DNA of 16,614 bases from an uncultured bacterium (GTDB lineage Bacteria; Lernaellota; Lernaellaia; Lernaellales; Lernaellaceae): NCBI GenBank assembly GCA_964534375.1, contig CAZHPN010000142.1, forward strand, positions 1 through 16,614. The letters run 5' to 3'. The translations under genes were made by a program, and so were the position numbers. The first letter of the stretch is position 1. Every line of letters starts with the position of its first letter. Of this stretch, positions 5,570 to 16,495 are shown in pieces. The notes below the pieces were generated by a model, which saw only the letters and a list, made by a program, of their open reading frames with translations, did no database searches and was not told the DNA's origin.

Positions 5570-7498
5570 TTAGGGCAGCGTGCGGGCCACGCGGAACCCT
5601 TGGTACGAGCTGCGGTTTCCCGGATCGATGAAGTGGCGATACGCCGAGCGGCACTCGTAGGCGTAACTGCCCCAGTTGCCGCCGCGGTACACGCGGCCGG
5701 AACCCGTCGTCGGGCCGGTCGGGTCGGTGACCGTTCCCGGATACGCGCCGTACCAATCCCAGACCCATTCCTGGACGTTCCCGGCCACGTCGTATAAGCC
5801 CCACGCGTTCGCGGTTTTCTGGCCGACCGCCTCGGTCGTCGTGCGATCGTTGCCGCAGTACCAGCCGATCGTGTTCAGGTTCGCATCGACCGGCGTGCAG
5901 ACCGCTCCGGAAACGGCGATCGTCCCGTCGTAAAACGCGGTCGTCGTCCCCGCCCGGGCCGCGTATTCCCATTCCGATTCCGTCAACAGCCGGAAGCCCG
6001 TGCAGTCATAAACCGAAGCGACCACGTTGAGGGCGATGTTCGCCGAAGAAATGCCGCCGTGGGTGAGGCTTTCGCAGTTCATGTAGTCCGAGCCGACGGC
6101 CGTAGCGTCATTGCAGATCACGTCGGTCCAGGTGTAGCACGGCGTCTGTCCGGCGTTGAGCGAAATCTGGTCGGCGTACGCCGCCGCGTCGTACCAACTC
6201 ACCGAGTCTTCCGGGCAATTGCCGCCGCAACTCGCGAACGCGCTGGGGTTCCAGCTCATCGCGGCCGTGAACTGCTGCTGCGTGACTTGATAGACGCCGG
6301 TTTCGAAATCGTGGCTCAGCGTCACGGTGTGCTGCGTCTCATCCGCGTCGCGGCCGGGCTCGGACGCCGGGCTGCCCATCGTGAAACTGCCATGCGAAAC
6401 GCGAACGAAGCCGGAATCAACCGTGTCGTCGTTGTCGTCGTTGTCGTCGTTGTCGTCGTCGTCCGCGCCGCCGCGCGCGCAACGGAAACCGACCTCGGGG
6501 AAGGCCGAATCCGGCGTGATCCAGCCGCGGGCGGAGGTGCGCAGGGTGGTCGCCACGTCGCTGTAGCTGCCGCCGCGCACAACGCGGTACGTCCCGCTGG
6601 CCGGGCCTTGCGGATTGTCTTGCGGCGACGACGCGTAATAGGTCGCGTCGTACCAGTCGTTCACCCACTGGTCGACGTCGCCGAGCGGGTCGCACAGGCC
6701 CCAGGCGTTGGCCGTTTTTCCGCAAACCGGCTGGGTGGCGCCGCCGGAGTTGGCGGAATACCAGGCGAGCGCGCCGAGGCACGATTCCTCTTCGCAACCG
6801 TCATAGTAAATGTCGTTGGTTCCGGCGCGCGCGGCGAACTCCCACTCGGCCTCGGTCGGCAACCGCGCGCCGATCGCCTGGCAGTACGCCGCCGCCTCCG
6901 TCCAGCTCACCGTCTCGACCGGGCAATTGGCGCCGCAGCTCGCGAAGCTGCTCGGATTGGTTCCCGCGACGTTCTGGTATTCGGCCTGGGTGATGTCCGT
7001 TTTCGTGATCTCGAACGACGCGATCGTGACCGCATGCCGCGGGTTTTCGTCGTCGCGGCAGTTCGTGTCGCCCGGGATGCAGCCCATGTAGGCCGACCCG
7101 CCGGGAACCGGCAGCCAGACGATCCCGCTCGTGTCGTTGTCGTCGTCGTTGTCATTGTCGTCGTCGTTGTCGTTATCGTTATCGTTATCGTCATTGTCGT
7201 TGTCGTCATTGTCGTCGTTGTCGTCGTCGTCGTCATCGACCGGCGAAGCGTCGTCATCGACGGGCGAGGCGTCGTCATCGACGGGCGAGGCGTCGTCGTC
7301 GTCATCGGGGGAGGAATCGTCGTCGTCGTCCGGCGTCGCGTCGTCATCGATCGGCGAAGCGTCGTCGTCGCTTGGCGACGCGTCGTCGTCGAGCGGATGT
7401 TTGCTGCCGCCGCTGCTGCTGGAACTGCTGCACGCCGTCGCGGACAACAGCAACACCATCGTCAACAGAAACAACAAAACCCAACTGCCTCGTTTCAT
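5570..7498 (-). CDS. Lipoprotein with acidic linker and two formylglycine-generating enzyme (FGE-sulfatase/SUMF1, C-type lectin fold) domains
   Basis: GGAGG before ATG7498; ...LLSATAC lipobox-like; two domains each with RL(P/L)TExEWE(F/Y)AARAG, NAWGLxD, RGGx(Y/W) and GFR motifs, separated by DDDDNDDNDDNDD. Confidence 0.92.
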   Translation of the reverse strand: MKRGSWVLLFLLTMVLLLSATACSSSSSSGGSKHPLDDDASPSDDDASPIDDDATPDDDDDSSPDDDDDASPVDDDASPVDDDASPVDDDDDDNDDNDDNDNDDNDNDNDNDDDNDNDDDNDTSGIVWLPVPGGSAYMGCIPGDTNCRDDENPRHAVTIASFEITKTDITQAEYQNVAGTNPSSFASCGANCPVETVSWTEAAAYCQAIGARLPTEAEWEFAARAGTNDIYYDGCEEESCLGALAWYSANSGGATQPVCGKTANAWGLCDPLGDVDQWVNDWYDATYYASSPQDNPQGPASGTYRVVRGGSYSDVATTLRTSARGWITPDSAFPEVGFRCARGGADDDDNDDNDDNDDTVDSGFVRVSHGSFTMGSPASEPGRDADETQHTVTLSHDFETGVYQVTQQQFTAAMSWNPSAFASCGGNCPEDSVSWYDAAAYADQISLNAGQTPCYTWTDVICNDATAVGSDYMNCESLTHGGISSANIALNVVASVYDCTGFRLLTESEWEYAARAGTTTAFYDGTIAVSGAVCTPVDANLNTIGWYCGNDRTTTEAVGQKTANAWGLYDVAGNVQEWVWDWYGAYPGTVTDPTGPTTGSGRVYRGGNWGSYAYECRSAYRHFIDPGNRSSYQGFRVARTLP

Positions 7499-13407: not shown

Positions 13408-14139
13408 ATGGCGATTTATCTGGTCACCGGCGCATGCTCGGGCATCGGCGAAGCCCTCGCGCGGCAATTGTGCGCCGCCGGGCACACGGTCTACGGCGTC
13501 GCGCGCCGCGGCGACAAACTGGCCGAATTGGCCGGCGCGAATTCGGGCCGGTTTTTCGCGTTTCCGGGCGACGTGACCGACAAGGATGCGGTGAGCCGGC
13601 TCTGCGCCGCGCTGCCGCAACTGCCGGATGTGCTGATCCTCAACGCCGGCGTCGGCGAAATGGACGCGAAGGCGGGCTTCGACCTGGCGTTGCACGAGCG
13701 GACGTTCGCCGTCAATTACTTCGGCGTCATGCACTTCATCGACGCCCTGCTGCCGCGGATGCAGGAGCGCGGCGCCGGCAAGATCGCCGCCGTGGCGAGC
13801 CTCGCCGCCTATCGCGGGCTGCCGCGGGCGGCCGCGTACGGCGCCAGCAAGGCCGCCCTGTCGGTCGCGATCGAGTCGTTTCGCGTGACGAATATCGCGC
13901 ACGGCGTGGAATTTCTCACGATTCACCCCGGTTTCGTGAAGACGCCGATGGCCGGCAACAGCACCGACCCGCGGCCCTTCGAGTGGCCCGTCGACAAAGC
14001 CGCCCGTTTCATTCTCGCCAGCATCGAAAAGGGCGACGAGAACATCAGCTTCCCCTGGTCGTTGCGCCTGGGCATCGGCCTCTTGTGGCTTTTCCCGGCC
14101 GGTCTTTACCGGCGCCTCGTCAGAAAATCGCAAAATTAA
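13408..14139 (+). CDS. Short-chain dehydrogenase/reductase (SDR)
   Basis: AGGAGG RBS; TGACSGIG, NAG, catalytic Ser, YGASK and PGFVKT motifs. Confidence 0.95.
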   Translation: MAIYLVTGACSGIGEALARQLCAAGHTVYGVARRGDKLAELAGANSGRFFAFPGDVTDKDAVSRLCAALPQLPDVLILNAGVGEMDAKAGFDLALHERTFAVNYFGVMHFIDALLPRMQERGAGKIAAVASLAAYRGLPRAAAYGASKAALSVAIESFRVTNIAHGVEFLTIHPGFVKTPMAGNSTDPRPFEWPVDKAARFILASIEKGDENISFPWSLRLGIGLLWLFPAGLYRRLVRKSQN

Positions 14140-14145
14140 TAAAGT

Positions 14146-14168
14146 GCGGGTTCCAGGACGGAACCCGC
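14146..14168 (-). terminator. Intrinsic terminator-like hairpin
   Basis: GCGGGTTCC/GGAACCCGC perfect 9-bp stem, followed on the minus strand by ACTTTATT. Confidence 0.65.
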
Positions 14169-14169
14169 G

Positions 14170-14260
14170 GGTGGTGAGGTTAGAGCAGTAACCTAGCTGA
14201 GGGAGTGATCCTCCCTCGGTGGGACTGAAGGCTTATGGCCTTTTCGTGCCCTCGCCTCCA
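14170..14260. ncRNA. Unassigned structured RNA candidate (four-way junction)
   Basis: Three adjacent hairpins enclosed by a closing stem in a non-coding gap between convergent genes; no family recognised. Confidence 0.5.
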
Positions 14261-14374
14261 ATTACTTAGTCGCCTGCCAGGATTTTTTCTTACGGGCCAT
14301 GTTGAGATTGTTTACTAATATGTTCACGAGAGGCCGGCAGCGCCTCTGTGGAATTTTGCGGGCTTCGCGGCGCC

Positions 14375-15025
14375 TTACGCCGCAGCCGCCGGCAGCAGAT
14401 AAAAGAAGATTCCGCAGAAGTGGCACGCGGCGCCGCCCAGCACAAACAAGTGCCAAATCGCGTGATGAAACGGAATGCGCCGGTTGGCGTAAAACGCGAC
14501 GCCGGCCGTGTAGGCGAGGCCGCCGCCGACGAGCCAGGCCATTCCGCCGCGCGGCACGGACGCGAGCAGCGGCTTGATCGCGATCACGATCAGCCAGCCC
14601 ATGCCGAGGTACAGGGCGATCGTCACGCGCGGGAAGCGATCCATGAACAGGACTTCGTGCAAAATGCCGACGGCCGCGAAACCCCAGACCAGGCCGAACA
14701 GCGTCCAGCCCCATGCGCCCTTCAGCGCGACGAGCGTGAACGGCGTATACGTGCCGGCGATCAGCAGGAAGATGGCCGAGTGGTCGAAGACGCGCAGCAG
14801 GCTTTTCGCGCGCGGCGCGGTCGCGAGGTGGTACAGCGTCGAGCAGAGGAACAGCAGCGTCAGGCTCGCCCCGTACACGCTGACGCTGACGATCAGCCGC
14901 GCATCGCCCCGCCGCGCCGCGAGTGTGGCCAGCGCCGCCATCCCGACGGCGCCAAGCGCCGCGCCGACGCCGTGCGTGACGCCGCTGACCAGCTCCTCGC
15001 GAGGGGTGTAGCGCGCTTCGGTCAT
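14375..15025 (-). CDS. trhA: Hemolysin III / PAQR family membrane protein (TrhA/YqfA-like)
   Basis: AAGGAG RBS; EELVSGVTHG, STLYH, DHSAIFLLIAGTYTPF and HAIWHLFVL motifs; ~7 hydrophobic segments. Confidence 0.95.
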   Translation of the reverse strand: MTEARYTPREELVSGVTHGVGAALGAVGMAALATLAARRGDARLIVSVSVYGASLTLLFLCSTLYHLATAPRAKSLLRVFDHSAIFLLIAGTYTPFTLVALKGAWGWTLFGLVWGFAAVGILHEVLFMDRFPRVTIALYLGMGWLIVIAIKPLLASVPRGGMAWLVGGGLAYTAGVAFYANRRIPFHHAIWHLFVLGGAACHFCGIFFYLLPAAAA

Positions 15026-15244: not shown

Positions 15245-16495
15245 ATGCGCAAGCCGTTGAGCGTTTGTGGCCTATGGTTCCTTCTTCTTCTGTCGCTCGC
15301 GCTGTTCGCCGGGTGCGGATCGCAGTCGGCGTCTTCGAACGCCGGGAGCGCGCCGGCGGCTGGCGATGACGACGCCGCGGCCGCGGACGACGACCAGGCG
15401 ACCGGCGACGATGACGACGACGACGACAGCTCGCCGTTCTGGCCGCCGGACCAGCCGGGGCCGTACGGGGCGGGCGTCATCACGATCCAGACGCGCGACG
15501 ATAGCCGCTGGGAGTTGTGGGGCCTGCAATACCGCGGCCTGCCGCTGGAGATTTGGTATCCGACGACCGGCGACGACGGCACGCCCAACAACGTCAAGGC
15601 GATGGTCGGCGACTTGCCGGCGTGGATTATGGATATCGTCGGCCTGGTTTACGGCGACGACCTGAACACCCTGCTGACCACGCCGACGAAGGCGAAGCGC
15701 GATGCGACTCCGGCCGCCGGCGGCCCGTTCCCGGTGCTGTTGTTCAGCCACGGCATCTCCGCCATTCGCTTCCAGAACTACACGCTGTGCGAACACCTCG
15801 CCAGCCACGGCTTCGTCGTCGTGGCGCCCGACCACTACGACGGCGCGATCTTCGCCAACCTCGGCAACGACGACGTGGTCATCTTCAACGTGCTCACTTG
15901 GGTCACGGGTCTCGTCGACCGCCCGCTCGACGTCTCGTTCGTCTACCATTACCTGGAGGGGGCGGCCGGCAGCGGACCGCTCAGCCGCATTCCGATGGAT
16001 CTCGACCAATTCGGCGTCATCGGCCACAGCTACGGCGGCCTGACGGCGATGCAGGCGGGGCCGCAGTATCCGCAGTTCGTCAAGGCGATCGCGGCGCTCA
16101 ACCCGGTCTACACCGACAGCTATCCGCAGGACTATGCCGGGCCGTTCTTCATGCTGCAAAGCGCCGAGGACGAGATCGTCGGCGCGTTCAACGGCGGCAC
16201 GCGCGAGGCGTTCGAGAAGGCCGCCTCGCCCCGGAAATCCTATGTGCTGCTCAAGGAGGGCAGCCATTACAGCGTCACCGACGCCTGCGCCTTGCTGCCG
16301 CCGCTGCTGATCGTGCCGGCGCGCGGCTGCGGGGTGGCCGACCGCATCAATTCGACGCTGGCCAACGAGATTTCCGCGGCCTACGTGACCGCGTTTTTCA
16401 AGACGGGTGTGGTCGGCGACGAGCGGTATCGCGAATACCTGATGTCGAACCACTATCCGAAGGACATCAAATACGCCGTGGAGTGGCCGAAGTAA
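15245..16495 (+). CDS. Alpha/beta-hydrolase lipoprotein (PAF-acetylhydrolase/dienelactone hydrolase-like) with acidic linker
   Basis: MRKPL...LFAGC lipobox; DDD tract; LEIWYP, FPVLLFSHG, LASHGFVVVAPDH, nucleophile GHSYGG, candidate Asp (EDEIV) and His (GSHYS). Confidence 0.9.
   Translation: MRKPLSVCGLWFLLLLSLALFAGCGSQSASSNAGSAPAAGDDDAAAADDDQATGDDDDDDDSSPFWPPDQPGPYGAGVITIQTRDDSRWELWGLQYRGLPLEIWYPTTGDDGTPNNVKAMVGDLPAWIMDIVGLVYGDDLNTLLTTPTKAKRDATPAAGGPFPVLLFSHGISAIRFQNYTLCEHLASHGFVVVAPDHYDGAIFANLGNDDVVIFNVLTWVTGLVDRPLDVSFVYHYLEGAAGSGPLSRIPMDLDQFGVIGHSYGGLTAMQAGPQYPQFVKAIAALNPVYTDSYPQDYAGPFFMLQSAEDEIVGAFNGGTREAFEKAASPRKSYVLLKEGSHYSVTDACALLPPLLIVPARGCGVADRINSTLANEISAAYVTAFFKTGVVGDERYREYLMSNHYPKDIKYAVEWPK

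Follow-up and report, generated by a model that had tools for sequence, protein, structure and literature searches.

A candidate small RNA gene, probably on the minus strand, conserved in three genera of a Lernaellota family

A conserved block in the spacer between two convergent genes of an uncultured bacterium of the phylum Lernaellota is best explained as a stand-alone gene for a small non-coding RNA, encoded on the minus strand between about 14262 and about 14135 and thus some 125 nt long; we put the probability of this reading at about 0.5. Positions refer to the window, that is, the whole stretch of 16,614 nt that was analyzed. In three genera of one family, the block occurs once per genome and is held by purifying selection; read on the minus strand, the unit terminates in a GC-rich hairpin that is conserved and has a U-tract after it. 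The pairing of one of its hairpins, P2, is maintained through compensatory changes, and the unit keeps its identity despite changed neighbors. It most likely represents a candidate new sRNA family of the ordinary bacterial kind, not a tRNA-like one. The original prediction had described a cloverleaf-like RNA at this site and offered a novel sRNA, a tRNA-like element, or a 3′-UTR-derived RNA as its identity; the evidence favors the first of these, and comparison with relatives shifted the probable gene to the strand opposite to the one on which the cloverleaf had been drawn.

Locus and neighboring genes

The host genome (G000) is a 6.3-Mb bin of 381 contigs with 64% G+C. The element sits in a 235-nt spacer (14140-14374) flanked by the following convergent genes.

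13408..14139, plus strand: short-chain dehydrogenase (SDR) gene (Pfam adh_short, E 3e-39), convergent with the RNA
14375..15025, minus strand: HlyIII-family membrane protein gene (Pfam HlyIII, E 5.2e-42), upstream of the RNA on the same strand

SDR orthologs with 51-56% identity were present in all seven other genomes of the family. From the HlyIII stop to 14168, the terminator scan detected no terminator, and HlyIII transcripts may therefore read into the sRNA unit. A 5-6-bp hairpin, GAGGC...GCCTC, was seen at 14330-14346, just past the HlyIII stop, with a U-tract on neither strand.

Contigs of the same strain from four wetland DNA runs were identical across the element and thus provided no usable population variants. 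In the wetland runs, the contig depth rose 10-30-fold at 14680-14850 and 15352-15435, with many variant letters; these jumps reflect conserved protein motifs (HlyIII core) that further organisms in the samples share, rather than extra copies of the locus.

Occurrence and conservation in related genomes

BLAST of the element against 41 relatives and the phylum comparison set, which consisted of 17 species genomes of Lernaellota, returned short chance matches only. The best of them, in G008, lay within an 834-aa ORF. When genome and metagenome contigs were searched with the SDR protein, only distant SDRs (53% or less) were obtained, none of them with the element. The 3′ flanks of six of the seven SDR orthologs were read (the seventh genome, G006, was covered by the R2 search described below), and in G004, which belongs to a different genus, a look-alike began right after the SDR stop. 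The plus strand of the window sequence alone was used to build a covariance model (R1), which scored 14.9 bits on this flank; its best non-self match among the 17 genomes was G001:C19:8484-8610, with about 24.1-24.2 bits and an E value of 0.014. A three-sequence covariance model of the best-aligned half of the element (R2) scored G000, G001, and G004 at 98.5, 82.7, and 79.1 bits, respectively, with the next best match in the phylum at 21.7 bits. Over 151 genomes (the 17 phylum genomes plus other phyla), the best further R2 match reached 26.2 bits. The weak R2 matches in five phylum genomes (13.7-21.7 bits) were inspected and judged to be noise, as were the top 3 of the 10 matches in other phyla (19.2-26.2 bits), which were poor. 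With the covariance models, the element was found in three of the eight genomes of one family, representing three genera; the R2 search did not find it in the five other family genomes (completeness 84-98%) or in the nine phylum genomes outside the family. A 446-nt contig from the wetland run X2 matched 14141-14208 with 6 differences and 1 gap and is probably a fourth relative.

Local alignments among the three homologs gave z values of 12.8, 19.2, and 4.4 (0/300 shuffles each), and the global identity was about 59-60% over 200-218 nt. The control region, 200 nt upstream of the SDR orthologs, showed no similarity (z 0.7, 0.5, and -0.4), and SDR third codon positions were 40-47% identical at the same genome distance. 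No small ORF was conserved among the three homologs, and the minus orientation of G004 had none of at least 12 codons. Since the element was conserved beyond the spacer control without a shared ORF, purifying selection acts on a non-coding unit.

The element occurred as a single copy in its own genome (BLAST, blastn-short, nhmmer, and a covariance model found the self match alone), and the covariance model detected one copy in each of G000, G001, and G004; therefore, it is not a REP/MITE-type repeat. Like such intergenic repeats, it is rich in hairpins and sits where genes end, in a genome of high GC content, but it differs in its single copy in each of the three genomes and in that spacer searches within the same genome gave no repeat. 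Searches against Rfam 15 yielded no match at the gathering score, and at E <= 10 nothing overlapped the element in G000 or G001; the G004 element had one chance-level match, HgcF, with 15.3 bits (gathering score 70). The original prediction had named a multi-copy repeat, a known Rfam family, and a lack of conserved or covarying homologs as findings that would speak against it; the element is single copy, matched no family, and has homologs with compensatory changes. A motif scan also revealed, outside the window at about 7000-7110 of G000:C238, a unit of about 37 nt repeated three times in tandem (…TGTAAGAGCGCCTTTCCAGGCGCGACCATCATCATC…).

Genomic context in the relatives

In G004, the SDR ortholog is again immediately followed by the element, and the upstream gene, which has the same orientation as the unit, is closed off before it by a strong terminator (L051 198-230). 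In G001, the element occupies a 440-nt spacer between divergent glycosyltransferase-9 and M14 peptidase genes. The upstream gene there is divergent from the unit, and past the terminator hairpin of the element comes a separate sigma-70-like promoter for the downstream glycosyltransferase gene. The SDR ortholog of G001 is on the same contig as the element, 4 kb away, which suggests that sequence between the two was inserted or rearranged. The interval between them (L063 768-5611, G001:C19) contains a 603-aa ORF that matched no Pfam family, a methyltransferase gene, and the glycosyltransferase-9 gene. Inspection by eye of the 3′ flanks of 11 HlyIII orthologs revealed no look-alike of the element. 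Because the unit keeps its identity with three different upstream neighbors, it is neither the SDR nor the HlyIII 3′-UTR, and the earlier idea of an RNA derived from the SDR 3′-UTR is contradicted by its position in G001.

In two genomes of genus g3, G005 (L050) and G002 (L056), the SDR stop was followed closely by a classical sigma-70-type site (in L050, TTGACA, 17 nt, TAAATT) and by a gene starting MTDKKADLAGPG. Sigma-70-type sites behind the SDR orthologs of this genus indicate that the lineage uses standard promoters elsewhere.

Parts of the unit

The conservation spans about 14322-14125 on the minus strand. The parts of the unit are as follows, from its 3′ end to the outermost upstream block.

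14125..14145, minus strand: U-rich tail ACUUUAUUAAUUUUGCGAUUUUC from the terminator scan, overlapping the SDR stop codon (14137-14139) and the last codons
14146..14168, minus strand: hairpin T, a likely intrinsic terminator with 9 bp, GC-rich, and a 5-nt loop; the best conserved part
14169..14176, minus strand: C-rich linker CACCACCC, immediately 5′ of the terminator and free of pairs in the minus-strand folds
14177..14194, minus strand: hairpin P3, AGGUUA/UAACCU (arm 1 of the cloverleaf), 6 bp in G000 and weakly conserved
14199..14217, minus strand: hairpin P2, the 7-bp core GAGGGAG/CUCCCUC of arm 2; all cells pair in the three sequences
14224..14262, minus strand: 5′ hairpin P1, in which AUUGGAGGC (14262-14254) pairs with GCCUUCAGU (14232-14224); apical part variable
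14267..14293, minus strand: two-part motif GTAAG (14293-14289), 16 nt, CGACTA (14272-14267), a putative promoter
14312..14322, minus strand: third conserved block CATATTAGTAA (consensus YnTATYAGKAA), 21-24 nt upstream of GTAAG

All cells of hairpin T pair on the minus strand, and 92.6% on the plus strand; U-rich tails follow the same hairpin in G004 and G001. The linker together with the 3′ side of P3 reads CCUCACC, and all three genomes share a block CCUC(A/U)C. The linker may serve as a seed; alternatively, it forms the 3′ strand of the closing stem described in the original prediction. For P3, just 3-5 pairs could be drawn in G001 and G004. P2 extends on the plus strand to 14196-14220 via G.U pairs. 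Both sides were changed in 3 of the 7 pairs of its minus-strand core and in 4 of the 10 pairs of arm 2 on the plus strand. P1 was present in the minimum-energy folds of G000 and G004, and in one G001 fold the 5′ box was paired elsewhere than in P1. By hand pairing, one P1 position is G.U, A-U, and G-C across the three genomes; in the model-fitted alignment, G001 is aligned differently at this position and gapped. We infer that the RNA would begin at 14262 ± 4.

The GTAAG-to-CGACYA spacing was 16, 17, and 16 nt in the three genomes, and the spacer itself showed no similarity. Terminator and promoter scans of G000 and G004 found no sigma-70-type site upstream of the element. A two-part promoter layout with fixed spacing and a free spacer, lacking the sigma-70 consensus, suggests that an alternative sigma factor may read it, and the GTAAG/CGACYA motif may resemble ECF-type promoters. 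If this putative promoter is active and the gene is expressed, transcription would start a few bases past GTAAG-16-17 nt-CGACYA. The block at 14312..14322 marks the outer limit, beyond which the similarity stops.

The GTAAG/CGACYA motif had 6 matches in the genome versus about 8 estimated from base composition. As it was not enriched, and the four contexts inspected showed no pattern, it was rejected as a regulon marker. A 12-codon ORF, MARKKKSWQATK (14300-14262, minus strand), overlaps the GTAAG/CGACTA motifs; it was absent from G004 and G001, was rejected as a gene, and probably arose by chance.

Strand of the RNA

Judged from three sequences, the functional RNA is probably on the minus strand. 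The terminator scan flagged hairpin T and the U-tract on the minus-equivalent strand in all three genomes (G000, G004, and G001), whereas no terminator-like site was flagged on the plus-equivalent strand in any of them. One such site in 800 nt is the level given by shuffles (mean 1.1), and the argument from the terminator therefore rests on its conservation. In the G004 terminator stem, two G.U pairs on the minus strand correspond to two mismatches on the plus strand.

For 14135-14262 in G000, z was -5.13 on the plus strand versus -5.16 on the minus strand (0/200 shuffles on either strand). For G000, G004, and G001, the fold z values were -5.16, -3.77, and -6.37 on the minus strand and -5.13, -2.09, and -3.02 on the plus strand, respectively. 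The minus-strand folds had in common P1 (G000 and G004), the 7-bp P2, a pyrimidine-rich stretch with few paired bases, and the terminator, whereas the plus-strand minimum-energy folds differed between the three genomes.

A minus-strand covariance model built from the window alone (R3), over a range slightly different from that of R1, scored G004 and G001 at 28.1 and 27.9 bits, compared with 14.9 and 24.1 bits for R1. MAFFT (three sequences) and RNAalifold (two) misaligned the stems, and model-based alignments were used instead. In the R3 alignment, 97.9% of 94 cells pair and both sides are changed in 11 of 31 pairs, values that 0/500 shuffles reached; in slid controls on the same alignment, at most 61% of cells pair. 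This alignment was fitted to the model and has four rows, one of which is the palindromic hairpin of G000 from the other strand. Since the alignments were fitted to the models, all pair counts, which come from three sequences, lean toward the structures tested.

On the other hand, several observations are contrary to the minus strand. Only plus-strand folding lets the outer three pairs of P2 form in every one of the three genomes, and arm 2 has 9-10 bp in each of them on that strand. A U.G pair of arm 2 that is kept in all three on the plus strand is a C.A mismatch on the minus strand. The plus strand is also lower in absolute energy in G000 (-63.1 versus -54.2 kcal/mol) and in G001. A long-range closing stem can be drawn in all three genomes and competes with P1.

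The cloverleaf and its fold statistics

The stems on which the original prediction was built are present in the sequence. The closing stem GGTGA (14173-77)/TCGCC (14252-56) was confirmed, as was the alternative 7-bp stem GGTGAGG/CCTCGCC, which contains one G.U pair and is followed directly by TCCA at 14257-60. Arm 1 (GGTTA-GAGCAG-TAACC) lies at 14178-93, and the 10-bp arm 2 lies at 14196-14220 with two G.U pairs. The hairpin at 14146-68 has the loop AGGAC and, as had been noticed, a U-rich tract on the minus strand only, where the scan placed a terminator-like site. The individual stems of the four-arm cloverleaf thus exist where they were drawn, but all four cannot form together: arm 1 overlaps the 7-bp stem by 2 nt, and the GTGCCC of arm 3, an arm that requires a bulge, has CC in common with it. 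The minimum-energy fold of the plus strand is a closed multi-branch structure instead, and arms 1 and 3 were not retained in the homologs.

Fold energies were compared with those of dinucleotide shuffles for two ranges.

88-nt unit, plus strand: -40.8 kcal/mol, z -3.30, 0/300 shuffles as good
88-nt unit, minus strand: -34.4 kcal/mol, z -2.53, 5/300 shuffles as good
14140-14300, plus strand: -73 kcal/mol, z -4.24, 1/200 shuffles as good
14140-14300, minus strand: -62.6 kcal/mol, z -3.48, 0/200 shuffles as good

As a caution, the purine-rich strand of a genome with 64% GC folds into an impressive cloverleaf by itself.

Alternative explanations

An RNA read from the plus strand, with the hairpin at 14146-68 as a 5′ stem-loop followed by the closed multi-branch fold, and existing either on its own or as the 3′-UTR of the SDR mRNA (G000 and G004), is unlikely in our estimation. 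It would account for the lower energy of the plus strand, for the full length and the kept U.G pair of arm 2, for the closing stem, and for the position of the element directly behind the SDR stop in two of the three genomes. Against it stand the absence of a terminator-like site after the element on the plus strand (0/3), the location in G001 away from the SDR gene, the disagreement among the minimum-energy folds, the weaker z values in G004 and G001, and the two mismatches in the G004 hairpin; moreover, composition alone makes G/U-rich strands fold better. The locus could also hold no separate RNA gene, only the terminator and 3′-UTR of whichever minus-strand gene lies upstream (in the window, HlyIII) together with chance GC-rich hairpins in the spacer. 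HlyIII transcripts probably do cross the element in G000, and a terminator-like site every 800 nt is what shuffling yields, but we consider this very unlikely: the flanks of the HlyIII orthologs had no look-alike, the element follows another gene in G004, one that has a terminator to itself, and in G001 no gene of the same orientation precedes it, and its conservation is far above that of the neighboring spacer. Slightly less probable still is that the block acts as DNA, for example as a protein-binding or recombination site. Its short blocks at fixed spacing (GTAAG, 16-17 nt, CGACYA; YnTATYAGKAA) do resemble DNA motifs; P2, however, stays paired via compensatory changes, the hairpin and U-tract are kept in all three genomes, and the element is single copy, with no repeat found when the spacer was searched against its own genome.

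The original prediction had compared the loop of the first hairpin with a CsrA/RsmA site, and a plus-strand RNA that titrates CsrA/RsmA by offering GGA motifs would fit with a purine-rich plus strand carrying 5-8 GGA triplets per homolog (hand count), with the loop GGA in the window, and with the CsrA gene of the genome (PF02599, 85.2 bits, G000:C24), features also associated with the CsrB/RsmY/RsmZ sponges. We regard it as highly improbable. The first-hairpin loop contains GGA in only one of the three homologs (AGGAC, GUUU, and AAGA), and the GGA of arm 2 is in the stem, not in a loop, in G000 and G004. In contrast to the known sponges, the element has few motifs, mostly in stems, and its terminator is on the other strand; the GGA excess is only about twofold over composition by our estimate, the Rfam CsrB/Rsm families gave no match at E <= 10, and the objections to a plus-strand RNA hold here too. 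A tRNA-like element or a remnant of a tRNA or tmRNA with a CCA end would explain the 7-bp stem followed by U-CCA and the three inner hairpins on the plus strand of the window, yet it is scarcely credible. ARAGORN found no gene in the whole window at default settings and none in 14100-14420 at -ps80, and at -ps60 and -ps50 it gave only inconsistent calls with undefined anticodons; Rfam tRNA and tmRNA models were unmatched at E <= 10. The loops of the element have 6, 5, and 3-5 nt, and neither a T-loop nor a 7-nt anticodon loop is present, which bears out the earlier remark that canonical tRNA features are missing; D-arm geometry is likewise absent. The inner arms 1 and 3 are not conserved, and UCCA is no free 3′ end: it belongs to a conserved block kept as UCC(A/C)(A/U)AU, which is paired (GG/CC) in the plus-strand fold and on the minus strand forms part of the 5′ stem, whose start reads AUUGGA.

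Possible mechanism and likeness to known sRNAs

As a stand-alone minus-strand sRNA, the element would fold into the 5′ hairpin P1 (a GGAGG-like box paired with a GCCUYC box), P2, a weak P3, an unpaired C-rich stretch, and the terminator. The minus strand contains the CCUC-type boxes GCCUUC, CUCCCUC, and CCUCACC, which are complementary to the GGAG-type ribosome-binding sites ahead of neighboring genes. In the least certain step, the RNA might act in trans by base pairing through these pyrimidine-rich boxes and so keep target mRNAs from being translated, perhaps together with Hfq, for which the genome has a gene. The complementarity of the RNA to the ribosome-binding and start regions of the SDR, HlyIII, glycosyltransferase-9, and M14 peptidase genes was unexceptional (background fractions 0.74-0.95); because these neighboring start regions were not unusually complementary, we name no target. 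In G000 and G004, the RNA would also run at its 3′ end into the last part of the convergent SDR gene, which makes a local antisense effect possible.

The features may also be drawn together into a first riboregulator family of Lernaellota, controlled by an alternative (ECF-like) sigma factor and encoding a box-switching sRNA with both trans and local antisense action; this combined reading is a long shot. A single 5′ Shine-Dalgarno-like GGAGG box would then alternate among the anti-Shine-Dalgarno-like CCUC boxes (P1 versus the closing stem), and this switch could mask or expose a seed ahead of the terminator.

The nearest analogy is with the envelope-stress sRNAs of E. coli, which are driven by an ECF sigma factor. 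Like trans-acting Hfq-type sRNAs in general, the element is an intergenic, single-copy gene of about 125 nt with its own terminator hairpin and U-tail, a 5′ hairpin, unpaired pyrimidine-rich stretches, and a 3′ module that is best conserved, and it occurs in a genome with an Hfq gene, behind a promoter-like motif off the sigma-70 consensus. It differs from these sRNAs in having no sequence or Rfam relation to described families and in being known from sequence alone, in only three genera, all from a single family in a phylum without cultured members.

In the titles and opening lines of the abstracts returned by a search for the phylum name, small RNAs were not a subject of the Lernaellota literature. 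If transcribed, the element would give this phylum, which is represented solely by metagenome bins, a first candidate family of regulatory RNAs, and the covariance models provide a handle for collecting further members from peat and wetland assemblies.
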